Positions 1 to 59,067 of a stretch of 64,000 bases of DNA are shown piece by piece. The notes beneath the pieces are model-generated. The model made no database searches. It had not been told where the DNA came from and was given only the letters and a program-made list of their open reading frames with translations. The position numbers and the translations under genes are program-made. Position 1 is the stretch's first letter. Each line of letters begins with the position of its first letter. Source of the stretch: a phage; the sequence record PV467749.1. One strand, written 5' to 3'.

Positions 1-622
1 TACTTTGACGACCGATTATGATAGAATTTCGGATTAGAAAATTACTACAGTACTGAAAATCTTTGTAGTACTTGTCAAGGATATATGGCATTATCGCTTC
101 TTTCACTTCTTCATATCCATTTGAACTATCAATTGCAGTACAATAATCTTCTCGGTCTTTATTCCCTCGATGATTATCAAACTCGTACTCAAAGAATAAA
201 TTTTCATTTAATGAATTATTTGAACCAACTGATCCACTATAGTATGATTTTCTATCATTCATTCGATCATCGGGGCATGATGCATACATAGAAATGTCAT
301 GTGTTGACGTACCGATATAAATTTTCTTAGTAATGTGATTGTACGCGATGTAATCATAATCTTGTACTCCAGTGAGCATTAACTGGAACATCAATTCATC
401 AGGAACATCAATCAACGGGTACTCAAACTTCGAATATCTACTACGACAGAAATTCTTTTCAAATGCTCGATATGCGATGAAATCTTTTAGGTTTGTAATA
501 GATTCATGCTCATGTGTATTACTGGTGCGTACATTGACATTAGTAGACGAGCAATACCCTTCAGATTCTTCTGTGTAGTCATAATAACCCTTACTGTAGT
601 CAACGATTAGATAAAGTTTCAT
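1..622 (-). CDS. family A (FQ-motif) paralog, 3' end outside window
   Basis: ORF open to window edge; ATG at 620-622 preceded by GGAG; contains DELMFQLML. Confidence 0.5.
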   Translation of the reverse strand, partial: MKLYLIVDYSKGYYDYTEESEGYCSSTNVNVRTSNTHEHESITNLKDFIAYRAFEKNFCRSRYSKFEYPLIDVPDELMFQLMLTGVQDYDYIAYNHITKKIYIGTSTHDISMYASCPDDRMNDRKSYYSGSVGSNNSLNENLFFEYEFDNHRGNKDREDYCTAIDSSNGYEEVKEAIMPYILDKYYKDFQYCSNFLIRNSIIIGRQS

Positions 623-10534: not shown

Positions 10535-10595
10535 ATCTTCTCCTGTACTCTGTTAAAAGCGATTATAACACACCTGAATGCTCATGTAAAGCACT

Positions 10596-13117: not shown

Positions 13118-13463
13118 AATTTACCTCGTATGTGTTATAATTCCACGTTTTAACACTATCCATTTGTATATCCTGAACTTCATGGAAATATTTAAGTACC
13201 TTCTGGTATTCCATTAGTTCGTACACATCTTCAGTATTGACAGTGCTCTCCTGAAACAATTCCTCTTCTGATAAAGTACTATAATCAGGGATTTTTATTT
13301 CAGAATATATCTCATTCATATATGAATCATTTTGGTAAATCTGTAGATAAAACTGATTATATTCAGGGATATAGGTTACGAAATGGTTCTTGATGAATTC
13401 ATATCTTGAAGCAAAGCAATCATTGCCATCCGTCATGTACTGAATTGTTGTTGTATTATGCAT
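13101..13463 (-). CDS. family A (FQ-motif) paralog
   Basis: 120 aa; motif EEELFQEST. Confidence 0.55.
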   Translation of the reverse strand: MHNTTTIQYMTDGNDCFASRYEFIKNHFVTYIPEYNQFYLQIYQNDSYMNEIYSEIKIPDYSTLSEEELFQESTVNTEDVYELMEYQKVLKYFHEVQDIQMDSVKTWNYNTYEVNYVRND

Positions 13464-14414: not shown

Positions 14415-14473
14415 TGTGATATAACCCTTTACAATTAATATAAAGAGATTATATCACAAAGATTTGGAGGGTG

Positions 14474-15064: not shown

Positions 15065-15353
15065 ATGGATAATTTTCCATAATACGATTCAAAAGTATCT
15101 GGTACTGTTGTAGTACTTCAATTTCCAAATGTATACTACTATCCAGTACTAATGACTCCTGAAACAATTCACCTGTATCTAAACCTGAAAAATCATTTAT
15201 AGTTAGCATTGGCTTATCATTTGTACGCAATGTAAATGATTCCTCATTTCGGATTAATGTACAGAATTCATTATGTTTTCTGTTATAATTCATTTTAACT
15301 AATAATAACTTAGTGTGAGTTGCGTACATTATTTTTACTAATTCAGTCTTCAT
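15015..15353 (-). CDS. family A (FQ-motif) paralog
   Basis: 112 aa; motif GELFQESL; start may be downstream. Confidence 0.5.
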   Translation of the reverse strand: MKTELVKIMYATHTKLLLVKMNYNRKHNEFCTLIRNEESFTLRTNDKPMLTINDFSGLDTGELFQESLVLDSSIHLEIEVLQQYQILLNRIMENYPCEVGGPMQFKSKMYEL

Positions 15354-15702
15354 AACGGAATAAAATTCTCCTGTACTGCTCCGGCTTAGTACTCAATCTC
15401 TTCACCGGATAATTGTCGAAGATCCTTTTCATTTCTTTCTGGATTAAACAAAGAAAATCAAAATCACAATAGTATTTTTTATCCCATACTAAACTTTCTT
15501 GAAATAACTCATCTTCTTGCATTAGCGTAGTATCAATCGTATCTTCACGTGTATTTGAGTACGCTTCATGACATTGAAATCCATCTTCTGACAATTCTAA
15601 TGTATATGCCGCCATTTCAAACATATCATCATTTGTCTTTAACGAAAGTAAACAACAAACGTATTTTTTCGTTGTGTAGTACGTAATACTAATGGTATTC
15701 AT
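15343..15702 (-). CDS. family A (FQ-motif) paralog
   Basis: 119 aa; motif EDELFQESL. Confidence 0.55.
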   Translation of the reverse strand: MNTISITYYTTKKYVCCLLSLKTNDDMFEMAAYTLELSEDGFQCHEAYSNTREDTIDTTLMQEDELFQESLVWDKKYYCDFDFLCLIQKEMKRIFDNYPVKRLSTKPEQYRRILFRYED

Positions 15703-15707
15703 GGCAT

Positions 15708-16310
15708 TTAAACCTCAGTATAAAGCTTACAATAGCTTTCATCGAAATCAAAAATACTTCTCAAGAACTGACAAAGGTCAGTAAAAATATTTACATTTGC
15801 TATATACACATTATCAAATTCTGTTCTTTCGAAGAATGTATGCATAGAATTTGTAATATATCTCATTGCAGATTCACGCTGCATTGTTATATCATTTGTG
15901 AACATCGCATCTTCATCAGTACTGACTAATTCAATATCAAATGATTGCATATATGGGATACTCTTCCCTAGTGCAAAGCTATCACCGTATGATGCTTCAA
16001 CTGCACCTTTAGAATACACCAATTGATATAAGTCCGAAATAGGGTTATAAAAAGTACGACATATTGATGAACATAATTTATTATCTATCCAAAAGAAAAC
16101 CCTATTTGTATTACCGTCAAATGCTATACGCAATCCATCACCATCTAACGATATATCACCATCGAGATTAAAAGAGAACTGAACTAATGCTTTTTCTAAG
16201 TCCATTCTTTTGTGATAAATGATTTCTTGCATATAGATAATATCATTTACTAATTTCTTAAAATACAAATGAACCTCAGTACTACAACATTTATTTGCAT
16301 TTAATAACAT
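15708..16310 (-). CDS. hypothetical protein
   Basis: 200 aa; no FQ motif. Confidence 0.5.
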   Translation of the reverse strand: MLLNANKCCSTEVHLYFKKLVNDIIYMQEIIYHKRMDLEKALVQFSFNLDGDISLDGDGLRIAFDGNTNRVFFWIDNKLCSSICRTFYNPISDLYQLVYSKGAVEASYGDSFALGKSIPYMQSFDIELVSTDEDAMFTNDITMQRESAMRYITNSMHTFFERTEFDNVYIANVNIFTDLCQFLRSIFDFDESYCKLYTEV

Positions 16311-16897
16311 AGTAGTTCCTTATACATTGCGTGTATTCTTTCAATATCTCTGTAATAACTCATATCTTCACGAGTATCATTAAAAATAGTAACACTGAAT
16401 ATATTAATACTAATTGAACTATTATCAATGTACTCTTTTAATTTATTATAAAGATATATACATTTAGTAGATGTATCATCCCACATAAGACTATTTTGAA
16501 AGATGTTTTCTTCTGTATTAGGATATAAGTACTGGTCAATATTGTACTCCAATGAACTATCACAGTTTTTATATACAGAAATAGATGGAAAATTTTTATT
16601 GTACATAATACTAATAACATTATCATTGTATGTAGAAATTAAACTGGTACTGGATGCTACACTTTCATCATAATTCAGTACTGAAATTCTTGCATTATCT
16701 GTGCAGTACAGATGTTTCATTCCACCTCTCATAGCCATAGTAAGAAATTTATCAGTGAACCATATTCCTTTTGTTTTCAGTATAGTTTCATGCATAAGAT
16801 AAGTTTCAATGAAGATTTTTACACGCTCAAATGCTAAGTCAAGTTCATTGTACATAACGGATATCCTTCTGTAAAGAATCAATATATTCTTTAACAA
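16301..16897 (-). CDS. family A (FQ-motif) paralog
   Basis: 198 aa; motif EENIFQNSL. Confidence 0.55.
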   Translation of the reverse strand: MLKNILILYRRISVMYNELDLAFERVKIFIETYLMHETILKTKGIWFTDKFLTMAMRGGMKHLYCTDNARISVLNYDESVASSTSLISTYNDNVISIMYNKNFPSISVYKNCDSSLEYNIDQYLYPNTEENIFQNSLMWDDTSTKCIYLYNKLKEYIDNSSISINIFSVTIFNDTREDMSYYRDIERIHAMYKELLCY

Positions 16898-17036
16898 CTT
16901 GTTCCTGATACTGTGTGCCCAAATACATCAGTACTTTTAACTCTTTGAATTCAGTACTATATGAGTCGGTTTGCATCATTTTAGAAGAATATATATTGAA
17001 TAGTTTGGCAATATCATCTTGGTCTATTATTTTCAT
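16845..17036 (-). CDS. family B (LGTNYQE-motif) small protein, outlier copy
   Basis: 63 aa; motif YLGTQYQEQVV. Confidence 0.5.
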   Translation of the reverse strand: MKIIDQDDIAKLFNIYSSKMMQTDSYSTEFKELKVLMYLGTQYQEQVVKEYIDSLQKDIRYVQ

Positions 17037-17241
17037 ATATTCTCTTCTGGATTAGTTCCTGTAAGTGCTGAATATAACCCTTCATTGCAACATCCTGTTT
17101 GTTAGAGCCAACGAAGAACAATAGCTTAAAGTCATGGTAATCCATTTTTGGTTTAGTAGTGAACCATATGTCCCACACTGCCCTCACAGTTCTCATGTAT
17201 TCAATTCGATTAAATGTTTTTGAATACTTCATCGAAATCAA
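17014..17241 (-). CDS. family B-like small protein
   Basis: 75 aa; degenerate motif FVGSNKQDVAM. Confidence 0.4.
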   Translation of the reverse strand: MISMKYSKTFNRIEYMRTVRAVWDIWFTTKPKMDYHDFKLLFFVGSNKQDVAMKGYIQHLQELIQKRIYENNRPR

Positions 17242-17743
17242 CCTTTAATAAATTGATATTTAAATTACTGTTAAATGCCATCTGCAATTCCATATAGAAC
17301 TGAATAATAGCATAGTCAGGATCAGTACAAGATAGTTGAAAGCACTGTTCTTCAAATGAATTGTAATTGTACTTAGGAATATTAATAGTACGATATAACT
17401 CTGGATAACCCCATATCATAGTGTACACGTCAATTTCAGTACACTTTTTCTTAAAAGTCATCTGTCGAATAGTTTCAGATCTGGATTCAAGGTATACAAC
17501 ATTCTTATGAACGGCTGAACCAATTGAAAGCAATGATGTATCAATGACGTGTTTCTCACGTATCTCACACTTCTGGAATGCACCATTCCCTTGTAGAAGT
17601 TTATGGAAATCGTACTTCTCACTAATAACTGTACTAGGATCAATTAATCCAGTACTGCATTTTTTCAGTACTGGTACGATAGTGCGAATTTTTTTTGATA
17701 AATCTTGTAATGCATCATAATCATTAATGTTAATTTTTCTCAA
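17210..17743 (-). CDS. family A (FQ-motif) paralog
   Basis: 177 aa; motif EEQCFQLSC. Confidence 0.55.
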   Translation of the reverse strand: MRKININDYDALQDLSKKIRTIVPVLKKCSTGLIDPSTVISEKYDFHKLLQGNGAFQKCEIREKHVIDTSLLSIGSAVHKNVVYLESRSETIRQMTFKKKCTEIDVYTMIWGYPELYRTINIPKYNYNSFEEQCFQLSCTDPDYAIIQFYMELQMAFNSNLNINLLKVDFDEVFKNI

Positions 17744-18185
17744 AGGATGCCTCTTCTATAGTAACGAAATCAACTAACCTATCCAGATTTTCAGTGTCAA
17801 GATAAAATACATCCAGTACTGACTTCTGATATAGTACACTAAATGTACATAGATTGTCAAGTGTTCCTTCATTATAAACAGTACTTCCCTGGAAGTACCC
17901 TTCTTCTGTACTCAGAGATAAAATATCAGAAATTTTAAAAGATTCTTCATTCTCATGACGCTCTATCGTAACTTCATCATATTTTCTGTTCAATGAAATA
18001 TAATCGTATGCTAACTCAATTAGACTATAATTATCCGCATTAGTATCAAATAAAGAATCAATTGTAATCTTCGTGCCATTAGAAACTTCTCTTCGTTCAT
18101 CATCTACGTATTCAGGATTTTCTTTGAAGAACTTAACAACTTTTAGAATATCATTTGCTTTCTTGATTGCACTTTCGTAACTCAT
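17730..18185 (-). CDS. family A (FQ-motif) paralog
   Basis: 151 aa; motif EEGYFQGST. Confidence 0.55.
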   Translation of the reverse strand: MSYESAIKKANDILKVVKFFKENPEYVDDERREVSNGTKITIDSLFDTNADNYSLIELAYDYISLNRKYDEVTIERHENEESFKISDILSLSTEEGYFQGSTVYNEGTLDNLCTFSVLYQKSVLDVFYLDTENLDRLVDFVTIEEASFEKN

Positions 18186-18624
18186 TTTTTCTGGACTCCA
18201 TATATATTACCTGATTTAGTTCATATACATAATCTAAATCAATGAATATAGAATTATTAAAGTTCTCTTGCAGGAATGCATTAAAAACTACTAAAGCTCT
18301 TAACGCCCCATTTGGGTATATAGTACTGTACTGGAAGTAAGCATCTTCTGAATTTAAAAATAGTACTTCTTCTTCTGTGAATTCAAAATATTTTCCACCT
18401 TCCTCTATATAATAGAAAGTTCCAGAATCCCATACGAAGTACTTGAATTCCAAATCATAATCATGGGACTCGTACTTATATTCATTACCTAATCCTAGAA
18501 TATCTGTACCAACACTTATAGTACTAATATATGCCCCTTTATAGTCTAAGTACTTTACATTATTTTGAAAGAACTTTACTATATTAACTAATTCCTCAGC
18601 GTGCTTAAGATCACTTTCGTACAT
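18151..18624 (-). CDS. family A (FQ-motif) paralog
   Basis: 157 aa; motif EDAYFQYST. Confidence 0.55.
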   Translation of the reverse strand: MYESDLKHAEELVNIVKFFQNNVKYLDYKGAYISTISVGTDILGLGNEYKYESHDYDLEFKYFVWDSGTFYYIEEGGKYFEFTEEEVLFLNSEDAYFQYSTIYPNGALRALVVFNAFLQENFNNSIFIDLDYVYELNQVIYMESRKNELRKCNQESK

Positions 18625-18938
18625 TATATTTCAATCTCTATATATTTTTGGGTAATTAAGTAATCCCAGTAGTACTTCACATGTTTTTGTATCTCAAGTA
18701 AAGCATAAAAATTAATTCTCTTATCCCATACAAGTGATTCCTGAAAAATAAATGATTCATGATCATCTCTGTAATCACATTCAAGGAAGTCAGGAAGATA
18801 ATCACAATCGTGAAGATATTCAATCATTAAAGATTCATTACATCTTCTAACGGCAAGGTGCTGGAAATTATCATGATCGAAGAAATACATTAAACTAATT
18901 GTACCTGGAATGTACTGAATACTGTATAATAATTTCAT
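18624..18938 (-). CDS. family A (FQ-motif) paralog
   Basis: 104 aa; motif ESFIFQESL. Confidence 0.55.
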   Translation of the reverse strand: MKLLYSIQYIPGTISLMYFFDHDNFQHLAVRRCNESLMIEYLHDCDYLPDFLECDYRDDHESFIFQESLVWDKRINFYALLEIQKHVKYYWDYLITQKYIEIEI

Positions 18939-19378
18939 CGTTTACCCTTATGTTCGGCACGTACATATTCATAATCCAAATAAAACCTTGTACTATCAAT
19001 ACTTTTAAAGTACCACATAATAACTAAAGTATCTAGTACTTCATCATCATACAAAGTACTATTCTGAAAGTAATACTCTTCACTATCCCACGGACCTTTC
19101 AGTACTTCAAAGTTCAATTTTAAAGGTCTGCTGCGATTATAAAAACGGATTTCACCACCATAAGCATAACTGATAAATTCTGCATCTGGATTGTATTGTG
19201 AAAAATCTGCGGGACTTTTGGAATTCAGCCCAAGAATAACTGTAGTTGTGGTAAAATCACTATCCTTGTAGTAGTTACCATTCTCGGCTTTGTATACTTC
19301 TTCGAACTTCCCAGCCTTAATATCTTCAATATATGCCTGTAGTTCTTTTGCTTTATCAAGAGCACTTTGTAATGACAT
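18935..19378 (-). CDS. family A (FQ-motif) paralog, subgroup PWDSEEYYFQ
   Basis: 147 aa; motif EEYYFQNST; one of 4 near-identical tandem copies. Confidence 0.6.
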   Translation of the reverse strand: MSLQSALDKAKELQAYIEDIKAGKFEEVYKAENGNYYKDSDFTTTTVILGLNSKSPADFSQYNPDAEFISYAYGGEIRFYNRSRPLKLNFEVLKGPWDSEEYYFQNSTLYDDEVLDTLVIMWYFKSIDSTRFYLDYEYVRAEHKGKR

Positions 19379-19844
19379 TATCTTCCCCTACAGTATTCTC
19401 TACGTATTCATAATCGAAATAGAAACTATCAGAACCAATACTTTTAAAGTACCACATAATTACAATAACATCTAATTCTTCTTCATTGTACACAGTACTG
19501 TTCTGGAAGTAATATTCTTCACTATCCCACGGACCTTCTAGTACTGAATACGGAATGATTGTGTCATAATCATCGTAATCAGGGCTGTAAATTATAATAT
19601 CTTCATCTCTACAATAACTAATGTACTGATTGTACATATGATATTCACAGTCATCAGTATCACCCGTATCAGTGTGTAGTACTAACGTTTCTGCATGTAT
19701 CTCTGACTCATCATAATCGTCGCGGTCTTTTACAAAAAATTCAGTATCAGATGTTTTATACACACCAGGCACTGAACCTTCTTGTACCATAATCATGTAC
19801 TCATGAATCTTCTTTGCTTCTTTCAATGCACTTTCTAATGACAT
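19356..19844 (-). CDS. family A (FQ-motif) paralog, subgroup PWDSEEYYFQ
   Basis: 162 aa; motif EEYYFQNST. Confidence 0.6.
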   Translation of the reverse strand: MSLESALKEAKKIHEYMIMVQEGSVPGVYKTSDTEFFVKDRDDYDESEIHAETLVLHTDTGDTDDCEYHMYNQYISYCRDEDIIIYSPDYDDYDTIIPYSVLEGPWDSEEYYFQNSTVYNEEELDVIVIMWYFKSIGSDSFYFDYEYVENTVGEDNVITKCS

Positions 19845-38438: not shown

Positions 38439-38560
38439 TACTTTTTTATTAATAGTTTTCACCCCACCAGCAGATAGTTACTCACCGTTATTAACTATAT
38501 ATTTTGGATACACCTATGCACCCTGTGGGCTAGTTTTTGTCTATGCGTATATAATAGCAA

Positions 38561-38584
38561 AGGGACTGACCGGAGTCAATCCCT
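38561..38584. terminator. bidirectional terminator inside repeated intergenic cassette
   Basis: Hairpin AGGGACTGAC-cgga-GTCAATCCCT with T7 on plus and U-rich tail on minus; 3' of gene 38602-38802. Confidence 0.5.
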
Positions 38585-40846: not shown

Positions 40847-40905
40847 GGGGAGAACTATTCTCCCCTTGATGTAAACTATTATACAGTACTGGTATACTTT
40901 GTCAA
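40847..40905 (-). promoter_or_regulatory. promoter plus stem-loop cassette (PeSL-like)
   Basis: Identical architecture to 40353-40411. Confidence 0.55.
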
Positions 40906-41130: not shown

Positions 41131-41317
41131 CGTCTTGATTCCTTTTAGTACTAGGGAGAACCATTTCCCCCTCTCGATATAAAACATTATACGCTCATTG
41201 AGATAGTTTGCAAGTACTTTTTTAAAAATAGTTTTCAGTACTGAATACTTATATAATAGATACACTTCCGCACCCTATGGGTCAGTGAGTTATCTCTCAA
41301 TGGATATATAATAGCAA

Positions 41318-41341
41318 AGGGACTGACCGGAGTCAATCCCT
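41318..41341. terminator. bidirectional terminator inside repeated intergenic cassette
   Basis: Same hairpin as 38561-38584, followed by T6; 3' of kinase-like gene. Confidence 0.5.
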
Positions 41342-41354: not shown

Positions 41355-41939
41355 TTATCGTGTTACCTTACTTGCTGCCACATCACGCTTTTTATAGTAC
41401 TGATTCCAGATATTGCAGGTTAAACCGTAATCAAGTACTTTAATAAGGCCATTACGATCCTGGCCGATATTCTGTTTTCTGATATCTCTTATCGTTAGTG
41501 TTGATAATGTATCATCGACGTGTTGTAGTGCATCAGCAAAGCGGTGCTGGCGTTCGATTGCATTACGTTTAATATTGTACTTTAATTCATTGCACGCGTT
41601 TACGTGCTTCACACTACCTTTGCTTGCAGTACTCAACCGATCCATAACGATAAACATATTATCAGGATCGCATAAATGCATATGCACCTTTGCAAAGTAC
41701 TGTTTCAACTGAGGGCGGTCATAGTCTAAAAAATTCCATACCTTACATTCAGTTTCATTTTGTTCTACACCCGCATCACAATTCGCGACCTTAATCACTA
41801 ACCGATCATTTAAAGCGAAAACTATACGGGAAGAACCAGCACCGATGATCTCCAGGCCAGCTAACCGACAAGCTGAAAGGATCTCTTTGTTGGTTTCCAT
41901 TTCTGACAGTGTACGGATGAATTTAGTATAATTACGCAT
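41355..41939 (-). CDS. protein kinase-like protein (minimal ePK/RIO/KdoK-like fold)
   Basis: 194 aa from ATG 41937-41939 (AAGGAG SD); motifs in order IIGAGSSRIVF, VIKV, RDIRKQN, VLDYG. Confidence 0.5.
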   Translation of the reverse strand: MRNYTKFIRTLSEMETNKEILSACRLAGLEIIGAGSSRIVFALNDRLVIKVANCDAGVEQNETECKVWNFLDYDRPQLKQYFAKVHMHLCDPDNMFIVMDRLSTASKGSVKHVNACNELKYNIKRNAIERQHRFADALQHVDDTLSTLTIRDIRKQNIGQDRNGLIKVLDYGLTCNIWNQYYKKRDVAASKVTR

Positions 41940-41970
41940 TGCATGTTCTCCTTGAGTTAATGAAACTATA

Positions 41971-42213
41971 TTACAGTACTTTACTATCAATGGCAACTAC
42001 TTTTTTAACATTAACGGCGTGGATCACTTCCTTCGTGTTTTTAGTACTGAATACTTTCGCCGCTCCTTGTTCGACCGTGATACGATAGCGACCATTAACA
42101 TCAACCATATTAATAAAGTCCGGCGTGCTGAATGGTGTTGTTTTACATTTGAGTACTGTTAACAGTTCCACCAGCGATGTAGTTTCTTTGATACGTTTTT
42201 CTAAAGTAATCAT
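41971..42213 (-). CDS. hypothetical protein
   Basis: 80 aa from ATG 42211-42213; upstream leader duplicated at 42490-42546. Confidence 0.5.
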   Translation of the reverse strand: MITLEKRIKETTSLVELLTVLKCKTTPFSTPDFINMVDVNGRYRITVEQGAAKVFSTKNTKEVIHAVNVKKVVAIDSKVL

Positions 42214-43696: not shown

Positions 43697-43757
43697 GAGG
43701 GGAACCATTCCCCTCGCTTGATGTAAACTATTATACAGTACTAAGATACTTTGTCAA
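43697..43757 (-). promoter_or_regulatory. promoter plus stem-loop cassette (PeSL-like)
   Basis: TTGACA 43752-43757, TATAAT 43730-43735, hairpin GAGGGGAA-cca-TTCCCCTC 43697-43715. Confidence 0.55.
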
Positions 43758-44447: not shown

Positions 44448-44582
44448 GTAAAACATTATACTTGATTCTAAGTACAATGCAAGTACTTTTTAAAAATAGT
44501 TTTCAGTACTAGCCACCAGTAAACAATAGATACATTTATGCACCCGGTGGGCTGATTTGTTTCTATGCGTATATAATAGCAA

Positions 44583-44606
44583 AGGGACTGACCGGAGTCA
44601 ATCCCT
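44583..44606. terminator. bidirectional terminator inside repeated intergenic cassette
   Basis: Same hairpin as 38561-38584, T5 follows. Confidence 0.5.
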
Positions 44607-46503: not shown

Positions 46504-46605
46504 GATATTATATAGTTACATTTGTGCACCCTATGGGTTAGTGACGTTCTCGTCTTGATGTAAGTATTATGCCAGTACTGGCATTGTATGTCAACAATTA
46601 TTTTC

Positions 46606-47097: not shown

Positions 47098-47193
47098 TTT
47101 GTTTTCTCTCTCTGTTAGTGGGGAGAAGTTTTTCTCCCCTTGATGTAAACTATTATACAGTACTATAATCTATTGTCAAACTATTTTTTTATA

Positions 47194-48085: not shown

Positions 48086-48300
48086 AATTCATTTCCTTAA
48101 TTAGTGGGGGAAACCGTTTCCCCTTTCGATGTAAAACATTATACGCCTATTGAGATAGTTTGCAAGTACTTTTTAAAAATAGTTTTCAGTACTCAATACT
48201 TATATAATAGATACACTTCCGCACCCTGTGGGCTAGTGAGCTATCTCTCAATGAATATATAATAGCAAAATGGCTGACCGAAGTCAACCACTTTTTTCAT

Positions 48301-51015: not shown

Positions 51016-51498
51016 TTATGCTTCAACTTTGCGATGAGCTTCGATCCATTCCTCGCGAGTCATACCACTGGAGTTAATCGCGTCCAGTACTACCGCAATA
51101 CAGTTACCACGCACCGGAATCAGATATTCTTCCCCGTTGTCCAGTACTACCGCTACGCGTTCCTGAATCCATTTTTTGGCTTTTACTTCTGGCTTGTCTT
51201 CCCCATACTTAACCGCCAGGGCTTTTTGTGCCATCTCTGTAACTACTTCCAGATCCAATCCAACTACTGCCGCCTGAATACTTTCGATTGTTGCTTGTAG
51301 TTCTGCTTCACGGGCCGCCTTTGCCGCTTCAATTTCTGCCGCTTTATTTGCTTGTAGTTCTTTCGCAGTACTGTACGCGATGTTAAAATTATTGCGTACC
51401 GCTTTCATGGTATCGTTATCCAGTTCAGCCAGGATCTCAGCCGCTACGTTAGTTTCATTTGCTACCAGTGCTTTGATGAATGATTTTACATTAGCCAT
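51016..51498 (-). CDS. hypothetical Ala/Glu-rich protein
   Basis: 160 aa from ATG 51496-51498 (AGGA SD); promoter TTGACA-16-TAGAAT upstream. Confidence 0.55.
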   Translation of the reverse strand: MANVKSFIKALVANETNVAAEILAELDNDTMKAVRNNFNIAYSTAKELQANKAAEIEAAKAAREAELQATIESIQAAVVGLDLEVVTEMAQKALAVKYGEDKPEVKAKKWIQERVAVVLDNGEEYLIPVRGNCIAVVLDAINSSGMTREEWIEAHRKVEA

Positions 51499-51697
51499 TT
51501 TATAAATCCTCAATTAAAGTTTAGTTTACGTTTATTAGTGTATCAAAGTTTTCTCGACGTGTCCAGTTTTTCGTTCGACTTACTGGCGGTCTACTTAGTG
51601 CTCCCCGTCTTGATGTAATACATTCTACGCTTTTCTGCGGTAATGTCAACTACTTTCTTAAAACTATTTTCAAAGTATCTCAGTACTACGATACTAC

Positions 51698-52283: not shown

Positions 52284-52389
52284 TTGATTATCCTTAGTTA
52301 CCAGGGGAACCGCTCCCCTATGCAAAACATTATACGCGTTTAAAAACTAATTGCAAGTATTTTAATAAAAAGTATTTGAAAAATAATTG

Positions 52390-52418
52390 TTGACAACTGC
52401 ATCCAGTACTGGCATAAT
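52390..52418 (+). promoter_or_regulatory. plus-strand sigma70-like promoter, antisense to gene array
   Basis: TTGACA 52390-52395, 17 bp spacer with CAGTACTG, CATAAT 52413-52418. Confidence 0.45.
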
Positions 52419-52499
52419 TACTACATCAAGACGAAACAGTCACTAACCCACCGGGTGCCGAGATCCGTCTATTAAATGATTCAGTACTGAAAAAGTAAC

Positions 52500-52518
52500 G
52501 GGGAGTTATTATCTCCCC
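52500..52518. terminator. bidirectional terminator
   Basis: Hairpin GGGGAG-ttattat-CTCCCC; U-rich on both strands; 3' of minus gene 52525-52746 and of the short plus transcript. Confidence 0.5.
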
Positions 52519-52524
52519 GCGTTG

Positions 52525-52746
52525 TTATTTTGTAAGGTATAAACAGAAGTCGCCTTTATTTGCTACGCCGCCAGTGTAACGCGATGAATAGTTAGAAACG
52601 TCCTGGACTTCTGCTATTACCAGGGTATCATCATTCAATTCGTCGCAGAAGCAAACGGCTGGATCTTGTACGCCGATTTTGTCGGCATGTTCCCGCATAG
52701 ATTTAACCAGTGCTTCCAGTTGGGAAAGAGTAGTGATATTAGCCAT
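52525..52746 (-). CDS. hypothetical small protein
   Basis: 73 aa from ATG 52744-52746; track ORF extended through promoter. Confidence 0.5.
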   Translation of the reverse strand: MANITTLSQLEALVKSMREHADKIGVQDPAVCFCDELNDDTLVIAEVQDVSNYSSRYTGGVANKGDFCLYLTK

Positions 52747-52832
52747 TTTATTTTCCTCATTACCAGGGAGAACCATTTCTCCCTTTGATGTAAACCATTA
52801 TACAGTACTGAAAACTAATTGCAAGTACTTTT

Positions 52833-53093
52833 TCAATATTGTTTGTCGTCGTCTTCCTCGATGAATTGACCGACGAAATGATCTACTTTCGCTTTGAGGC
52901 TTTTATAATCTTCTTCTACTTCCTTTAAACGTTCCTGGTAGTATTCCAATGCTTCAAGATACGCCGCCTCAGCAGTTTTTGCACGCATGGCTAAATTCAT
53001 GCCACGCGTTTCATCAAATAGCCAATAACCATCGGTGCACTGGCTAATAGATAATGTCTTGCTTAGTGCTGTATAGCTAATTACTTTACTCAT
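52833..53093 (-). CDS. hypothetical protein
   Basis: 86 aa; charged helical C-terminal half; GAGGG SD. Confidence 0.5.
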   Translation of the reverse strand: MSKVISYTALSKTLSISQCTDGYWLFDETRGMNLAMRAKTAEAAYLEALEYYQERLKEVEEDYKSLKAKVDHFVGQFIEEDDDKQY

Positions 53094-53150
53094 TAGATAA
53101 CCCTCAGTAAAGGCGGGAACTATTACCCGCCATTATCTCAGTACTGAATA

Positions 53151-53390
53151 TTACATTCCAACCATTGCAGCACGGATCGCAGTAGTGCTATATTTGAATC
53201 CGTCCGGCGTTGTAGTAGTACCGTTGGCTTTTAATCTGCGGTACATACATTCCGCAGCAATATCTTTAGTTCTACTTTGTGCGATGCAACTTTGTGCAAG
53301 CCGATACAATGACTCACCGTTATTAATCCAAAGGCTTACATTCCAATGAGTTTTGTTTTTGTGTCCGTTGTAAGTTTTAGTACTAGCCAT
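53151..53390 (-). CDS. hypothetical protein, paralog of 55196-55435
   Basis: 79 aa from ATG 53388-53390; shared HKNKTHWNVSLWINN and PDGFKYSTTAIRAAMVGM. Confidence 0.55.
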   Translation of the reverse strand: MASTKTYNGHKNKTHWNVSLWINNGESLYRLAQSCIAQSRTKDIAAECMYRRLKANGTTTTPDGFKYSTTAIRAAMVGM

Positions 53391-53480
53391 TTTTAAATCC
53401 TCGTTTGAGCGGGGAACCACTCCCCGCCTTGATGTAAAGTATTATACGCTTTTAAACTTAGTTTACAAGTACTTTTTAAA

Positions 53481-54092
53481 TTAATATTCGATTGATTCCA
53501 CTACGCCATCAATAACATTGAATTGATATTCGTTACCCTCAATCAGTGCAGTAATGTTTTCAGTAGTGAATTGATCCTCATATGCATTCTCTAAATCACG
53601 GTACAACTTACGAGATAATTCACGGATCGCATCAGTCAGTAAGTTTTCCAGGTCATCAGCAAGTGCCGCTTGTTTTACAGTTAAATCAGTGTAGCGAGTA
53701 TCAACGCAACCGCTTACCGTGTTTTCGTGTGCGTAGCGAGAGTGTGAACGTTCTACACTCATTGCCAAATCATCTTCATTCAACAAGTGACGGATTGAAC
53801 GATATTTCGTTAACGCCTTAACCTTGCGTAAAAACTTCTCAGCGTCAACGTGGTTAGTACTGATTGATGCACCGTCACCTTGCGACCAAAAACCACTGTA
53901 TTGCAATTCAGCTTCATCTATGCCGTATTCTGGTAGTACTGTTTCTTTATAGTACTCGATAACGCCCTCAGCAAAGAAATTATCCTCACATGAACGCTCA
54001 CGATCCCGAACCAGTTCGATAGCCGCCGTTTTTTGTTCTGCGTTCAGTTCAGAAAAAGCCATAACAAAAGTAGTAGTAGTGATAGTTTTCAT
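53481..54092 (-). CDS. hypothetical protein
   Basis: 203 aa; motif YSGFWSQGDGASIS; no family recognised. Confidence 0.55.
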   Translation of the reverse strand: MKTITTTTFVMAFSELNAEQKTAAIELVRDRERSCEDNFFAEGVIEYYKETVLPEYGIDEAELQYSGFWSQGDGASISTNHVDAEKFLRKVKALTKYRSIRHLLNEDDLAMSVERSHSRYAHENTVSGCVDTRYTDLTVKQAALADDLENLLTDAIRELSRKLYRDLENAYEDQFTTENITALIEGNEYQFNVIDGVVESIEY

Positions 54093-54160
54093 TTTGTAAC
54101 CCTCATTCAGTAGTTGATGTAAGTATTATACGCTTTTAAAAACATTTGTCAAACTATTTT

Positions 54161-54235
54161 ATCAGGGGAGTTTTTCGTGTGCCTTACTCCTGGGCTACTT
54201 AACGGGAAGTTACTTATTTCGTTCCCCGTCCTGAT
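54161..54235 (-). ncRNA. candidate structured RNA element between tandem promoters (copy 2)
   Basis: 75 nt duplicate of 44375-44447; inner stem CGGGAA..TTCCCG replaces CGGGG..CCCCG. Confidence 0.3.
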
Positions 54236-54316
54236 GTAAAACATTATACGCTTATTGAGATAGTTTGCAAGTACTTTTTAAAAATAGTTTTCAGTACTGA
54301 ATAGTAAAAAAAAGTA

Positions 54317-54345
54317 TTGACAGCATTATCAAGTACTGGCATAAT
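54317..54345 (+). promoter_or_regulatory. plus-strand sigma70-like promoter
   Basis: TTGACA, 17 bp spacer with AGTACTG, CATAAT; followed by the ACCCACCGGGTGC box. Confidence 0.45.
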
Positions 54346-54522
54346 ATACCCCATGACAACAGCTAACCCACCGGGTGCACAATTGTAACTATACTAAACT
54401 AATTTTTCTATAGATACACTCCCGCACCCTATGGGCTACGGCTTATCTGCCAATGAATACATTATGCCAGTACTGACAAAATAAGTCAATACCGGCAATT
54501 GTAAATTTTTCAAAAAATATGA

Positions 54523-54753
54523 TTATACTGCAATCGCGTCCAGGCTGTAATAATAATAAGTGCCGTATTGGTGTACTTTATTACCTTTTATTTCAGTACT
54601 GAATGAATCCGAACGATTTGCATATGATGTTAATTTAAAGTACTTTGATTTGCTGATACGTTGCCATACACCACAGATCCGCTGTAAGTAAGTAGTTTTA
54701 TTCGTGGTCGTATCTTTTACGGTTTTAACTTCAGTCATATACATATTAGTCAT
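54523..54753 (-). CDS. hypothetical small protein
   Basis: 76 aa; PeSL cassette upstream. Confidence 0.5.
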   Translation of the reverse strand: MTNMYMTEVKTVKDTTTNKTTYLQRICGVWQRISKSKYFKLTSYANRSDSFSTEIKGNKVHQYGTYYYYSLDAIAV

Positions 54754-54840
54754 TTTTATTACTCCAGGTTATAGGCGGGAAGAGTTCCCGCTCTCGATGT
54801 AAAACATTATACGCCTTTAAACATAGTTTGCAAGTACTTT

Positions 54841-55107
54841 TTATTCAAGTACTGCAATCTTTTTAGTACGGTACACGGTCACGCGGTTGCCCTTTCGGTC
54901 GAGCTTTATTTCTACCACTCGACGCGATACACTATCGGGACTTTTTAAGGCCGCTAACCAGTACTGTAATGATCTGGCGGTACTACGCTTTACAATGGCC
55001 CAACGTTTACCACGTTCCGATTGTACGCCCATATCTTTAAACGTTGCCCCGTCCTGGCGTGCGGCGATCCGAGCTTGTTCACGCGTCGCAAAATACTTAA
55101 TATTCAT
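54841..55107 (-). CDS. hypothetical protein, paralog of 42859-43254
   Basis: 88 aa from ATG 55105-55107. Confidence 0.55.
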   Translation of the reverse strand: MNIKYFATREQARIAARQDGATFKDMGVQSERGKRWAIVKRSTARSLQYWLAALKSPDSVSRRVVEIKLDRKGNRVTVYRTKKIAVLE

Positions 55108-55195
55108 GCTGTTGCCCTTATCGTTGGTGTATGAATAAAACACTATTATAAAGTACTATCCCCGTGCAATAGTACTTTAAATAAATTCTATTCTA

Positions 55196-55435
55196 TTACA
55201 TTCCAACCATTGCCGCACGGATCGCAGTAGTGCTATATTTGAATCCGTCCGGTGTTTTATCTTGTCCAGTCTGTTCTAAAAATAACATCATATGACGGGC
55301 CGCATCATTGCGATTAGTGCTATCGTTAATAAAGTCCTGGGCCAACCGGTATAATGATTCATCGTTATTAATCCAAAGGCTTACATTCCAATGAGTTTTG
55401 TTTTTGTGACCTAAGAACATTTTTGATTTAGCCAT
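55196..55435 (-). CDS. hypothetical protein, paralog of 53151-53390
   Basis: 79 aa from ATG 55433-55435. Confidence 0.55.
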   Translation of the reverse strand: MAKSKMFLGHKNKTHWNVSLWINNDESLYRLAQDFINDSTNRNDAARHMMLFLEQTGQDKTPDGFKYSTTAIRAAMVGM

Positions 55436-55528
55436 TTTTTTAATCCTCTTATATAGTGGGGAACTATTCCCCACCTGATGTAAAACATTATACGCTTTTA
55501 AACTTAGTTTGCAAGTACTTTATTAAAC

Positions 55529-55891
55529 TTATTTGTAAATTTTGCCACTTTCTACCCATACCAGGAAACGAGGCATATTATCCCATGCATCTTGCTTTAA
55601 GTTTAAGCCGTGCAATTCCTCAGTTGTTGCCATGCCTGGGACTGGTTTACTATACACCGAGAATTTTTCGCCCATGTACTGATAAACCATCGTCAAATCA
55701 CTGGCGATCATCTTATGGATCATCGCATCAAGCATCACGGTCGCGGCGTATTGTTCACGCTTAAGCGGCAGCATTTTAATCAGTTCGCGGTATGCGTCAA
55801 TGTGAGTTTTAACCGTTGCCGCCGGAAGATCTTTCATCTCGTCGCGGAAGTTAACCAGGTTAGCAATAATTTTGGTGATTTGAGTCGCCAT
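55529..55891 (-). CDS. hypothetical protein
   Basis: 120 aa from ATG 55889-55891; track ORF extended through promoter. Confidence 0.55.
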   Translation of the reverse strand: MATQITKIIANLVNFRDEMKDLPAATVKTHIDAYRELIKMLPLKREQYAATVMLDAMIHKMIASDLTMVYQYMGEKFSVYSKPVPGMATTEELHGLNLKQDAWDNMPRFLVWVESGKIYK

Positions 55892-56199
55892 CGTTTTAAT
55901 CTCTCTTAAAAGTGAGTTAGGAGCGTTTCCCCCGTCTCGATGTAAAACATTATACGCCTTTAAACATAGTTTACAAGTACTTTCTACAAATACTTTTAAA
56001 ATAGTTTTCTTTCTATATAGGGAAACTATCATTCAGTACTGAATCAACCAAATCACTACTACACCCCGTAAAACGGCCTCAATCGCATTCTAACGCATTA
56101 TTACACCTAAGCTATACATTTGCACCATTCTAATCATTCCAGTGCGTTACGGGCCGTTTAAACGCGTTAAATTATTTTCAATTATTTTGTTTTTAGGTA

Positions 56200-56227
56200 T
56201 TGACTCAGTACTAAAAAAGCGTATAAT
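56200..56227 (+). promoter_or_regulatory. plus-strand promoter 1 of non-coding hub
   Basis: TTGACT, 16 bp spacer with CAGTACT, TATAAT. Confidence 0.45.
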
Positions 56228-56415
56228 TACTACATAGACGCGAGAAAGCGGATACCCCAGGGGGTGCGGAATTGTGCCCAAAATTCAAGATATAAAAAAA
56301 GGATACACTCCCGCACCCTAGCAGGTAAACGCACTTTCTCAGTACTGAAATATAGTACCATAGTCCGGCCCAGGATAGCAAGCAAATTAATTAAAACTTT
56401 TTTGCTTCCAGGGTA

Positions 56416-56443
56416 TTGCTTTATTTTTTCAGTACTGTATAAT
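56416..56443 (+). promoter_or_regulatory. plus-strand promoter 2 of non-coding hub
   Basis: TTGCTT, 16 bp spacer with CAGTACTG, TATAAT. Confidence 0.4.
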
Positions 56444-56540
56444 AGTTCCATCAAGTCGAGAAAGACTCAAGCCCACCGGGTGCATAGTTACGCCCAAAAT
56501 TCAGTACTGAAAAAATTTTTAAAAATATCCGTCCAGGTCG

Positions 56541-56569
56541 TTGACATTGCCCCCAGTTTATAAGATAAT
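56541..56569 (+). promoter_or_regulatory. plus-strand promoter 3 of non-coding hub
   Basis: TTGACA, 17 bp spacer, GATAAT; faces the iteron cluster. Confidence 0.45.
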
Positions 56570-56659
56570 GATTCCAGATTCAGAAAAATCTAACACCAGA
56601 TACTGCGGGGAAACTATCCCCACGCGGTAGGGGAACTATTGGAAAAAACAAAATAAAAT

Positions 56660-56810
56660 TTTGATTTAGCCGTCTATACTTCCAGACGTGTAACCATCTA
56701 GCCGTTTAGCCGTCCAAACGTCTAGCCATCCAGCCATCCAGAAATCTAGCCGTTTAGCCGTCTAGATGGATAGCCATCTTTACTTCCAGACTTCTGGAGG
56801 GCTAGACATA
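56660..56810. repeat. iteron cluster
   Basis: Short direct repeats TAGCCGT, CCATCCAG, GGCTAGA and twice TACTTCCAGAC within about 150 bp; no ORF. Confidence 0.55.
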
Positions 56811-57180
56811 TCTACGCCCAAAATCCATCCAGGGTAACTACACCCAAAATCCGTCAGTACTATACCATAGATCTATCTTTTGAAAGGGAGTATTCAGTAC
56901 TGCCATCATAGCCCTCACTATGTTACCCTAGGAGGATGAAGACTATCATGTAGTACTGAATACTGTTAGAGGGAATCCACCAGCTTGTGCTGGTGGCATA
57001 ATGCTTTAGATTAAAATCAGTACTGACACCATTCTGTTAATATCAGTACTGTTATTACGATTTTCATATGAGGTTCAAAAAGATGTACCACCACAGGAGG
57101 AACTATCTTTTCTGTACTGTCTCACGACAGGAGGTAGAGTAAATGAATTGTTCGCAGCAACTCATCTCTCTATGTAGAAC

Positions 57181-57209
57181 ATTATACAGTACTGAATCAT
57201 AATGTCAAT
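57181..57209 (-). promoter_or_regulatory. minus-strand promoter facing into the non-coding hub
   Basis: TTGACA 57204-57209, 17 bp spacer with CAGTACTG, TATAAT 57181-57186. Confidence 0.45.
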
Positions 57210-57875
57210 AGCTTTCTTTCATTATTCAGTACTGATATTCTTGAGAACTACCCGACTACAAACATCATTATATCCCACAAATCATAAACGTCCCAACGTA
57301 AATTTCAACTTTCGAAGAACCAACTTTTATTTCATAGGTACTCCAAAATTTTTAGGATCGAGATTTAGGATGGAGTACTAACCAACTTTTTGCTGGAGCC
57401 TCAAGGGGTAATTGAATTTTACCCCGAAGGGTAAAAGGGTAATTGAAATTAAGGTGAAAGTAATAATTCAGTACTAATCATTGCGTGATTACTTTTGATT
57501 ACATTTGATGTAATTTGCAAAATGGAAAAGGAGCTTGGAAACTACAAAGTACGGCAGACTTCCTCTGCCTACTTAGTGACATATCGACACCTTCAGTACT
57601 GAATACTTTTAGGGCAGTACTGAATCCTTCCCTAGCATTCTTGAGTAATCTTGTCTATAATAATCAGTACTGAATCATATATAATCATTCTGTGATTCTA
57701 CGGTGCTCATATAAATGTTTATATATGATTACTTATGACTACATATGATTACGGGGTTTAGCCTGGGGAGAATCCTAGTGATCGCATTTGTCCAGGCTGA
57801 ATTTTAACAATTCTTCTAATTGTTAAAGCCTGTCCAATGCTTTCCCTGCGGAGCTTCCCCTGTCTATATGTTGAA

Positions 57876-58082
57876 TTACTTCCTATATATAAGCATTAAC
57901 ATATAGTAGTACTGATTATGCTGTACATTCTCTTTAATATTATAAGGGTCTATAGCAATCTCGGTACATCTGTTAAATGCATATCTATTAAATGCCAGTA
58001 CTATTATAGATCTAATCCATGCTTGGTCAGTCGGTGGTAGTTTACTTATATAGTACTCTTTATAGTTTTTTATGTTCTGCAT
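57876..58082 (-). CDS. family C small protein
   Basis: 68 aa; conserved N-terminal K-[EY]-YY-x-KL and C-terminal Y..L.LIYR. Confidence 0.5.
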   Translation of the reverse strand: MQNIKNYKEYYISKLPPTDQAWIRSIIVLAFNRYAFNRCTEIAIDPYNIKENVQHNQYYYMLMLIYRK

Positions 58083-58093
58083 AGTATACCTTA

Positions 58094-58285
58094 TTATTTC
58101 AAAGTACCATATAGTACTCTTAATAGGAAGTAGTACGTATTAGAGATATCATTAGTAGTTAAAACAATCTTAGTACACATATTAAATTCGTATTGAGTCA
58201 TTGCCAGGGGGATTAAATTGTTAACCCATGCTTGTTCGTTTTCTTTGAGTTTACTTATATAGAAATCTTTATGTTCTTTATTCAT
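58094..58285 (-). CDS. family C small protein
   Basis: 63 aa; MNKEHKDFYISKL...LLRVLYG. Confidence 0.5.
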   Translation of the reverse strand: MNKEHKDFYISKLKENEQAWVNNLIPLAMTQYEFNMCTKIVLTTNDISNTYYFLLRVLYGTLK

Positions 58286-58487
58286 ATAGGAATAGTATAC
58301 CTATGATGCCGGAGTACATATTAGTACTGTTATTATTGTCGTTTGCGTTTAAGGTCATTTGAATACAATTATTGTAGCATAATCTGCCGAAATATGTATC
58401 AGTACTTAAAGGTGCTGTAGTCCTTAGAAACATTTGTTCTGTGGGGCTGAGGTGTTTGGAGTAGAATTCTTTATGTTCTTTATTCAT
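58278..58487 (-). CDS. family C small protein
   Basis: 69 aa; MNKEHKEFYSKHL; near-copy of 58861-59067. Confidence 0.5.
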   Translation of the reverse strand: MNKEHKEFYSKHLSPTEQMFLRTTAPLSTDTYFGRLCYNNCIQMTLNANDNNNSTNMYSGIIGILFLYE

Positions 58488-58492
58488 ATTAG

Positions 58493-58678
58493 TTAGTGTC
58501 TGTATATAAGTAATAGTAAGAATACGTACTGCACCTGTTCATCTTTAGTATTGAGTACTGTACGTATTGCGTCATGGAACAAGAATATAGTACTTGGGTC
58601 ATTAGAATTTAAGGGGTTTACGGGGACGGCGTGTTTGTAGTTCCCTTTAACAAATTGTATATAGTATTCTCTATGCAT
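58493..58678 (-). CDS. family C small protein
   Basis: 61 aa; MHREYYIQF...LLLLIYRH. Confidence 0.5.
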   Translation of the reverse strand: MHREYYIQFVKGNYKHAVPVNPLNSNDPSTIFLFHDAIRTVLNTKDEQVQYVFLLLLIYRH

Positions 58679-58679
58679 A

Positions 58680-58868
58680 TCAGTACCTATATATTAGGGC
58701 GAGAATGTAGTACAGTTTATATGTATTATAATCTGGGTTGATAGCACATAGTGTGTGGTAGTGGAATTGTTTGGTATTTTTCTTATCCTTGATATCTATT
58801 GGGATTTGTGGTATAAGCATTTGGGAGTTTAGATCGAGATGGCTTAAGTAGAATTCTTTGTTATTCAT
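58680..58868 (-). CDS. family C small protein
   Basis: 62 aa; MNNKEFYLSHL...ILALIYRY. Confidence 0.5.
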   Translation of the reverse strand: MNNKEFYLSHLDLNSQMLIPQIPIDIKDKKNTKQFHYHTLCAINPDYNTYKLYYILALIYRY

Positions 58869-59067
58869 AGAAGAATATTAGTCCCATTACGCCTGAGTAT
58901 TGAATATTTTTGTTATTGTTTTCTAAAGCTTCTAGAGTAATACGTATACAATTATTAAAGCAATCTCTGGCGTGTGGTGTATCTAAACGTAAAGGTGATA
59001 CACTCCTTAGAAACATTTGTTCTGATGCACTGAGGTGTTTGGTGTAAAATTCTTTCTGTTCGTTCAT
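58861..59067 (-). CDS. family C small protein
   Basis: 68 aa; MNEQKEFYTKHL. Confidence 0.5.
   Translation of the reverse strand: MNEQKEFYTKHLSASEQMFLRSVSPLRLDTPHARDCFNNCIRITLEALENNNKNIQYSGVMGLIFFYE

Follow-up and report, generated by a model that had tools for sequence, protein, structure and literature searches.

A 64,000-nt stretch of phage DNA (sequence record PV467749.1; the window hereafter) carries a family of short RNA units, each placed directly behind its own promoter; the copy analyzed in most depth lies at 52390-52533 on the plus strand. Together with their relatives in other jumbo phages, these units are a clade-wide, strongly non-random RNA motif family, which appears to be unannotated. 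A search of the window with a covariance model derived from ten copies gives 10 hits. They span 38.5-56.5 kb, inside the terminal repeat of the genome, and the other 43 kb give no significant hit. We see about an even chance that these units represent a multicopy family of early phage small RNAs, which would act as decoys, sponges or regulators. Small RNAs and leaders of this general type are already known; what is new is this particular family, with its many copies and its confinement to the terminal repeat.

Between 51 and 57 kb the window is 92-96% identical to the Asteriusvirus jumbo coliphages WPEC5, vB_EcoM_G17, Sharanji and phAPEC6. Judged by this identity, its source is an Asteriusvirus (121Q/PBECO4-type) jumbo coliphage. 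The direct terminal repeat (DTR) of phage fEgEco12 measures 20,993 bp, and such genomes have repeats of about 21 kb (PMC13070987). Alignment of 56600-59000 to fEgEco12 places the left genome end, that is, the inner edge of the right repeat of fEgEco12, at about 57,580 of the window, and the DTR therefore corresponds to roughly 36.6-57.6 kb. The G+C content is 0.38-0.40 inside the DTR versus 0.31-0.34 outside, a step that agrees with the mapped repeat. Coding density is 0.58 in the DTR versus 0.92 outside, and a strong promoter stands ahead of nearly every small DTR gene. Nearly all genes in the window are on the minus strand and are annotated as hypothetical.

An earlier note on this DNA had drawn attention to five plus-strand promoters, opposite to all genes nearby and each followed by a conserved box with an ACCC-N3-GGGTGC dyad. 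All five promoters are present: TTGACA-17-CATAAT at 52390-52418 and 54317-54345, TTGACT-16-TATAAT at 56200-56227, TTGCTT-16-TATAAT at 56416-56443 and TTGACA-17-GATAAT at 56541-56569. The box stands behind the first four and is absent behind the fifth. The exact form given for it, [AC]ACCCACCGGGTGC, proved too narrow, as it holds in two copies only: ACCCACCGGGTGC is exact at 52446 and 54366, and the boxes at 56255 (CCCCAGGGGGTGC) and 56471 (GCCCACCGGGTGC) are one-mismatch variants. Written as RCCC-AYM-GGGUGC, the box occurs ten times in the window at ≤1 mismatch, versus 0.44 expected, a count reached in 0 of 100 shuffles; the enrichment over shuffled sequence on which the earlier proposal depended is thus real. 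These ten boxes are at 38518, 41270, 44540, 46526, 48221 and 54424 on the minus strand and at 52446, 54366, 56255 and 56471 on the plus strand, with an exact ACCC-N3-GGGTGC dyad at 52446 and 54366 (+) and at 41270 and 46526 (-). The six dyads previously listed in the opposite orientation were all recovered, one of them about 15 nt away from its given position (44525; the copy is at 44540). With an 11th, degenerate copy that has its own promoter (56293-56351, -), 4 copies are on the plus strand and 7 on the minus strand.

All 11 window copies have a TTGNNN-16..18-NANNNT promoter upstream, the -10 of which ends 2-4 nt ahead of the model start (in one copy it overlaps the start by 1 nt). The same promoter pattern lies directly upstream of 84 of the 87 covariance-model hits in 15 sequence sources, namely the window and 14 fetched loci. 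Since the promoter distance is the same on both strands, the box belongs to the first 55 nt of a transcript and is not a mark of antisense promoters. The antisense framing of the earlier note lacks support for other reasons as well: about 60% of the copies run with the genes, the copy behind the 52390 promoter ends before the neighbouring gene, and those behind 56200 and 56416 are in a gene-free region. In four window copies (38498, 41250, 44520 and 48201) the -35 is inside a GC-rich terminator hairpin (AAAGGGATTGACTCCGGTCAGTCCCTTTGCTATTAT) followed by TTTGCTATTAT, as is also seen in RaK2; the other 7 have plain promoters.

The focal unit displays the whole arrangement. Its promoter (52390..52418, +) combines TTGACA, a 17-nt spacer with CAGTACTG and an extended -10 (TGgCATAAT), with transcription predicted to start at an A near 52425. 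The RNA core (52423..52478, +), which matches the covariance model with 65.3 bits (E=3e-17), contains a first hairpin, H1 (GAC at 52430-52432, GTC at 52439-52441), the box ACCCACCGGGTGC at 52446-52458 and the tail CCGTCT at 52465-52470. Behind it lie a CAGTACTG palindrome (52482..52489, +), the AGTACTG of which is kept in 6 of 6 aligned full-length orthologues or paralogues, and a bidirectional intrinsic terminator (52499..52533, +; GGGGAG...CTCCCC, then GCGUUGUUAUUUUG), which also ends the minus-strand gene 52525-52776. The forecast that this transcript would run for about 105 nt into a bidirectional terminator agrees with these positions, given a start near 52425 and a segment, 52499-52519, that scans as a terminator both ways.

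The consensus of 82 distinct copies describes an RNA unit of about 55 nt. It would begin about 7 nt past the -10, at the A of a conserved CAU, and continue with H1, a linker UAR, CCCAYAGGGUGC, six mostly purine bases ending in U, a tail of the form S-Y-R-U-C-Y (GUAUCU, CCGUCU or GUGCCC) and AU(A/U). H1 has a stem of 3-5 bp and an A-rich loop of 6-8 nt (for example, GAGAAA, AGAUAA or AGAACAA). Its stems are variable yet complementary, including GAC/GUC, GUC/GAC, CGC/GCG, GAG/CUC, GGC/GCC, CCAC/GUGG and others. Cells changed on both sides number 44 and 49 in two independent hit sets, values that 0 of 500 shuffles matched; each of the three modelled pairs is changed on both sides in 10-20 sequences, and H1 cells are paired in 96-98% of cases versus 8-64% when the register is slid. 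As these alignments had been fitted to the model, an alignment-free check was added: 53 of 73 copies have, in the 27 nt ahead of the core, a segment that folds better than shuffled versions of itself. A pairing of the H1 loop (AGAUA) with the tail (UAUCU) and a long closing stem were both considered and rejected, since the loops AGAACAA and GAGAAA occur with the same tail and no covariation is seen.

Downstream of H1, two hairpins compete for the central GGGUG. The first, H2 (RCCC with GGGU, closed by a 3-nt loop), is 98% paired and hardly varies; the outer pair is split between A-U (38 copies) and G-U (40), and two copies have a compensated CCU/AGG change. The second, H2', joins GGGUGC to the tail and is 90% paired versus 25-63% in slid registers. 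Variation in the tail consists of transitions only and keeps the pairing with GGGUG (U or C opposite G, A or G opposite U). RNAalifold applied to six full-length copies picks H2'. With GUAUCU tails, the estimated energies are about -4 kcal/mol for H2 and -5 kcal/mol for H2'.

The search with a covariance model of the aligned copies that the earlier note had recommended returned about 85 copies in related jumbo phages, at 10-12 per genome, all assigned to the DTR of about 20 kb, which is the early region. The Klebsiella phage RaK2, Erwinia phage Hallingskeid and Klebsiella phage fENko-Kae01 have 10-12 hits each, and in fENko-Kae01 all 11 are within the annotated repeat 1-19,736. A further 44 hits come from 121Q, GAP32, CBB, Yersinia phage fHe-Yen9-04 and metagenomic contigs. 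When 2.9 million viral contigs (IMG/VR) were scanned for the exact pattern, only Rak2-like genomes of about 350 kb and two metagenome fragments came up; the matches lie in one 20-kb stretch in RaK2 and in both terminal repeats in CBB. Between genera, DNA similarity of the DTRs is confined to short intergenic islands, which are the RNA units and the gene promoters. At the nucleotide level the motif is kept in phages from six host genera, namely Escherichia, Klebsiella, Salmonella, Cronobacter, Pectobacterium/Erwinia and Yersinia. Rfam 15 at gathering thresholds gives 0 hits in the 64-kb window; at E≤10, four weak hits occur in 52300-56700, none of them on an element core, and one of these, to RT-6 (52353-52425, -), overlaps the focal promoter. 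ARAGORN reports 0 tRNA or tmRNA genes in the window. We found no description of the motif in the literature on phAPEC6, Asteriusvirus, RaK2 or jumbo-phage small RNAs, and the CBB paper reports only RpoD-like promoters for this region (PMC5259590).

The units occur in three settings. In the 87 hits, 36 (about 40%) are anti-directional and about 60% are co-directional with the genes. Anti-directional single copies form promoter-to-terminator units of 105-110 nt: beyond the core, about 10 nt lead to a conserved AGUACUG and then to A-rich sequence, and a GC hairpin with a U-rich tail begins 16-20 nt past the core (12 cases in several phages). The layout of a stand-alone small-RNA gene of 50-300 nt, with its own promoter and a Rho-independent terminator, is seen at 52390-52533 and, among the fetched loci, at L002:12953+, L002:20020+, L004:3302-, L004:10995-, L016:672+, L016:2602+ and L017:9989-; co-directional copies do not have it. 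Convergent copies stand tail to tail, about 25-30 nt apart, in 11 pairs overall, which include 54348+/54404- and 56232+/56293- in the window. As judged from this geometry, a transcript from one copy of a pair would enter the antisense of its partner and could form a long imperfect hairpin. In co-directional copies the promoter is often within the terminator hairpin of the upstream gene, and after the core come CAGUACUG, an UP-like element and, at a distance of 20-70 nt, a strong promoter that drives the next gene.

Several of these properties point to function at the level of RNA: the constant strand polarity relative to the promoter, the covariation in H1, the alternation of A-U and G-U pairs and the transition-only variation of the tail. 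With the promoter-to-terminator layout repeated in other phages, they speak for the view that the dyad is the core of a small RNA family, which was one of the two possibilities raised in the earlier note. The free orientation relative to genes, the separate strong promoters and the self-contained, terminated copies fit a product that acts in trans and at high dose. The near-identity of the core across six host genera fits a highly conserved target, either a host machine or a conserved phage protein. Transcription, action in trans and a binding target are all inferred here from sequence.

A possible course of events is as follows. The DTR of about 21 kb contains about 11 paralogous units, which makes about 22 per virion genome counting both repeats. 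Each would be transcribed from a strong sigma-70-type promoter, which implies the host RNA polymerase acting once the DNA enters the cell. Anti-directional units such as that at 52390 would be complete small-RNA genes with a Rho-independent terminator at the end. In the RNA, H1 would probably serve as a generic 5′ stabilizing hairpin, and the central GGGUG would pair either with the upstream RCCC or with the tail. The abundant RNA would then act in trans during host takeover, its invariant core binding a factor conserved across Enterobacterales hosts or among these phages. A more specific version, which we put forward only tentatively and think rather unlikely, is that of a bistable host-takeover RNA (RCCC:GGGU versus GGGUGC:tail), made from about 22 promoters, which would neutralize or redirect a factor conserved in Enterobacterales, such as RNA polymerase, the ribosome or its anti-Shine-Dalgarno sequence, Hfq or an immune sensor. 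If true, this RNA would be the lytic-phage counterpart of decoy RNAs of the 6S/CsrB type, or an RNA-based anti-defence. Small RNAs of lytic phages are poorly known, and the early regions of Rak2-like phages are annotated only with hypothetical proteins and RpoD-like promoters. Conservation at the nucleotide level, together with 10-12 promoter-driven copies per repeat, suggests that a step in the first minutes after phage entry relies on RNA. The covariance model can also be used in genome annotation, where some of the intergenic units are now called hypothetical open reading frames (ORFs).

A number of observations weigh against a family of trans-acting early small RNAs. The co-directional copies, about 60% of the total, lack a terminator ahead of the promoter that follows. 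Without processing, their RNA would be no more than the 5′ end of an mRNA. H1 is missing in about one quarter of the copies (the short form), where an A-rich stretch, GAAAACAA, takes its place. H2 and H2' exclude each other and are nearly equal in energy, H2' is unstable with CCGUCU-type tails, that of the focal copy included, and, because the core is almost invariant, covariation cannot prove its fold. The full 113-nt RNA folds little better than its shuffles (z = -1.24). In the window there are no target-like sites complementary to the box or tail: matches to GGGTGC/GCACCC and CCC-N3-GGG include every element, and the rest are scattered without enrichment. A BLAST search of 5,426 E. coli genomes with the focal RNA found no match, and thus no host gene has been copied at a detectable length. 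No transcriptome of Asteriusvirus or RaK2-like phages was found in the searchable literature.

Some of these points can be accommodated by a cis-acting 5′ leader, in which the nascent RNA binds its own polymerase and makes it resistant to the many terminators of the early region, as HK022 put RNA does through the beta' zinc-binding domain, or the choice between H2 and H2' serves as an attenuator. The parallel is with HK022, whose putL and putR are promoter-proximal early nascent RNAs of 55-70 nt that form two small stem-loops and are made without any phage protein, the putL RNA (about 70 nt) following directly after PL (PMC9378689). The present unit likewise begins at the +1 of a strong promoter and has about 55 nt with two predicted small hairpins, H1 being supported by covariation and the second being ambiguous (H2 or H2'); the likeness lies in size and position. 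A leader would also suit the two mutually exclusive partners of GGGUGC, the terminator-dense early region, the -10-like TATAAT/TATAGT after the tail and the few copies in which a U-run directly follows H2' and which scan as terminators (56319-56300; L014:8948; L006:1225). However, H2' is mostly weak (about -5 kcal/mol) and lacks a U-tract, and the genes downstream have their own strong promoters 20-70 nt past the unit, at variable distance. The two put copies of HK022 are both co-directional with the operons and terminators that they serve, whereas these phages have 10-12 copies, of which about 40%, the focal copy included, are directed away from every gene and either terminate some 75 nt further on or meet a partner copy. 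We regard a cis-acting leader, the main rival of the small-RNA family, as unlikely. A different explanation attaches the function to DNA, with the ACCC-N3-GGGT dyad as an operator at +20 to +35, where a regulator of phage or host origin would bind to block the promoters or set their timing. The fixed position relative to the promoter, the near-invariant sequence expected of a protein site, the perfect dyad symmetry in half of the copies and the two CCT/AGG double changes, which also keep the DNA palindrome, are all as such an operator would have them. In about half of the copies, though, the outer position has G opposite T (A/T in 38, G/T in 40), a wobble that RNA tolerates and a mismatch that breaks a DNA palindrome, which favours the RNA family. 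Conservation past the dyad is one-sided as well, extending over 20 nt on the promoter-distal 3′ side only (the TGC, the purine-rich stretch and the tail), and many of the promoters supposedly regulated drive no gene. An operator, the other possibility raised in the earlier note, accounts neither for the covariation of H1 nor for the strand polarity, and we hold it to be quite improbable.

The intergenic setting brings to mind the promoter-early stem-loop (PeSL) elements of T4-type phages, and the units could be recombination or regulatory cassettes of this type, that is, linkers for modular gene shuffling with a core kept alike by gene conversion and without RNA function. PeSLs combine a near-consensus sigma-70 promoter, an AT-rich upstream element and a stem-loop terminator overlapping the -35/-10, and occur as many repeats in the plastic early regions of T4-related myoviruses (PMC2839356, PMC4122927). 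Ordinary DTR gene promoters are PeSL-like, co-directional units start in such a composite, as exemplified by the -35-bearing terminator hairpin of copies 38498, 41250, 44520 and 48201, and DTR similarity between genera is limited to intergenic modules of this kind. At its 3′ end, however, a PeSL carries a gene's Shine-Dalgarno sequence and start codon. Here the promoter is followed by a conserved non-coding core of about 55 nt, found in both orientations, in convergent pairs and across genera, and the gene has a second promoter 20-70 nt on. The retention of the core across six host genera, while H1 stems diverge with compensation, indicates purifying selection on an RNA fold rather than homogenization, and inverted copies would favour harmful inversions; there is little probability in this account. 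Even less can be given to a translated mini-gene, in which GGGUG would act like a Shine-Dalgarno sequence for (A/G/U)UG UAU CUA UAG, an ORF of 1-3 codons that begins 5 nt downstream and would act, for example, in ribosome stalling or tRNA sequestration. An NUG with a nearby stop is present in about 25 of 40 copies of the first hit set, and the scaffold ACAUCAAG-hairpin-ACUAA-Shine-Dalgarno-AUG, the 5′ part of which is identical to that of the RNA units, is common to gene leaders in this part of the genome. But one quarter of the copies (those with CCGUCU-type tails, including the focal one at 52446) have AUC or GUC and no start codon, and what is conserved is a pattern of purines and pyrimidines at the nucleotide level, not codons, with variable ORF length; the mini-ORF (MYL-stop), not being universal among copies, was rejected. 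Finally, the units might be sources of origin or primer transcripts, short RNAs that form R-loops in the AT-rich DNA downstream and prime early replication by a T4-like replisome. In T4, oriF and oriG work by promoter-driven R-loop priming. Each unit does supply a promoter, a G-rich RNA segment and AT-rich DNA, and the units are multiple, lie in either orientation and are near the genome end and an array of 8-bp repeats. Still, 10-12 origins in 20 kb are implausible, and T4 origin transcripts are not known to have a conserved RNA fold, in contrast to the conserved fold and sequence here, which makes this the most far-fetched of the explanations.

Among known small RNAs, the anti-directional units resemble the terminator-ended ones of bacteria and prophages (Hfq type), whose classic layout consists of an own promoter, a 5′ structured domain, an A/U-rich linker and a Rho-independent terminator with a U-tail. 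They share this layout, have ARN-like A-rich stretches in the linker and measure about 105 nt; the family differs in having many paralogues per genome with an invariant core, most copies being without a terminator of their own. With lambdoid nut sites (boxA/boxB), the units have in common a small hairpin with a purine-rich loop in an early transcript, while they have no consistent boxA, lack H1 in one quarter of the copies and are not tied to genes in orientation. As nut candidates they were rejected, a boxA-like 8-mer (≤1 mismatch) being found in only 5 of 87 copies, at scattered positions. A likeness of CUAACC...GGGUG to the boxB loop of phi21 was dropped, as UAG, CAG and AAG variants show that the CUAA linker is not kept. 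In the long DTR of PA5oct, a distantly related jumbo myovirus also dependent on the host RNA polymerase, RNA-seq detected two highly expressed non-coding RNAs of 236 and 451 nt, each accounting for 2-5% of phage reads in early and middle samples (PMC7318152). They set a precedent for abundant non-coding RNAs encoded in the terminal repeat of a jumbo phage. Unlike the present units, these are single-copy. The covariance model gave no significant match in the PA5oct DTR (best E = 0.25), and the PA5oct RNAs are unrelated to these units.

The remaining window copies are variations on the same plan. On the plus strand, a promoter (54317-54345) and a short-form core (54348-54398) make up the unit 54317..54398, convergent with the minus-strand unit 54404..54489 (promoter 54489-54461, core 54404-54458), its tail-to-tail partner. 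The unit 56200..56287 (+; promoter 56200-56227, core 56232-56287) has the box variant CCCCAGGGGGTGC and a GUGCCC tail with a strong alternative hairpin. Convergent with it is the degenerate 11th copy (56293..56381, -), which scores only 10.8 bits and has a TTGCTA-18-TACTAT promoter at 56381-56352 and the box CCUGCUAGGGUGC; its GGGUGC/GUAUCC hairpin (H2') is followed by U7 and is the intrinsic terminator scanned at 56319-56300. The last plus-strand unit, 56416..56503, has a promoter (56416-56443) and a core matching the covariance model (56448-56503).

Five copies on the minus strand are co-directional with the genes. The unit 48201..48287 has a TTGACT-17-TATTAT promoter (48287-48259) within the terminator hairpin of the upstream gene and a core at 48201-48256, beyond which come CAGTACTG-like sequence, an UP element and the promoter that serves the following gene. 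The unit 46506..46594 has a TTGACA-17-CATAAT promoter at 46594-46566 and a core at 46506-46561. Terminator-embedded promoters precede the other three: 44601-44573 for the short-form copy 44520..44601 (core 44520-44570), 41336-41308 for the copy 41250..41336 (core 41250-41305) and 38579-38551 for the short-form copy 38498..38579 (core 38498-38548). At 38579-38545, 41336-41302, 44601-44567 and 48287-48253 (-), the terminator hairpin (AAAGGGATTGACTCCGGTCAGTCCCTTT) holds the -35 of the next promoter and its U-tract enters the -10 (TATTAT); the stems of these composite signals covary among phages. Minus-strand early gene leaders (promoters 40878-40905, 43730-43757, 47152-47179 and others) consist of TATAAT, agtttACAUCAAG, a Gn-loop-Cn hairpin (GGGGAGAA..UUCUCCCC), ACUAA, a Shine-Dalgarno sequence and AUG.

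Other features cluster near the left genome end. At 56667-56790, about 12-15 tandem 8-bp units (TAGCCGTC, CATCCAGC, CGTTTAGC) lie in a 1.5-kb gene-free stretch, about 0.8 kb from that end. By its sequence this array is possibly iteron-like, a candidate origin or packaging site; the first 3 kb of fENko-Kae01 contain no counterpart of it. The plus-strand promoter without a box (56541-56569) reads through two small GC hairpins (about 56600-56640) into the array, towards the genome end. Further on, at 56809-56855 (+), the hairpins GGGC...GCCC-AAAATCC and GGGT...ACCC-AAAATCC resemble the GGGUGC/tail hairpin of copies 56232 and 56448, without promoter, H1 or box, and may be decayed unit fragments. 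In the same gene-free terminal region, a 99-codon ORF with a GTG start (56264-56563, +) runs across two RNA units and one promoter. Several hypothetical proteins annotated here in related records probably represent non-coding DNA called as genes by mistake.

The ten largest DTR proteins have no RNA-binding or regulator domain in Pfam. Below threshold, the protein encoded at 41355-41996 (-) resembles a protein kinase domain (E=0.004), a putative kinase being annotated in the fENko-Kae01 repeat too, and that encoded at 51016-51513 (-) resembles a papain-fold toxin (E=0.007). The AGTACT palindrome occurs 274 times in the window versus 21 expected, and CAGTACTG 63 times versus 0.6 expected. Even in coding sequence the enrichment of AGTACT reaches about 8-fold, and in the intergenic parts of the DTR about 25-fold. 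Its sites include promoter spacers right before the -10, positions right before the -35 and positions 10-20 nt past each RNA unit (for example, 52404-52411, 52482-52489 and 57017-57051). This distribution points to a genome-wide site of protein binding or modification.

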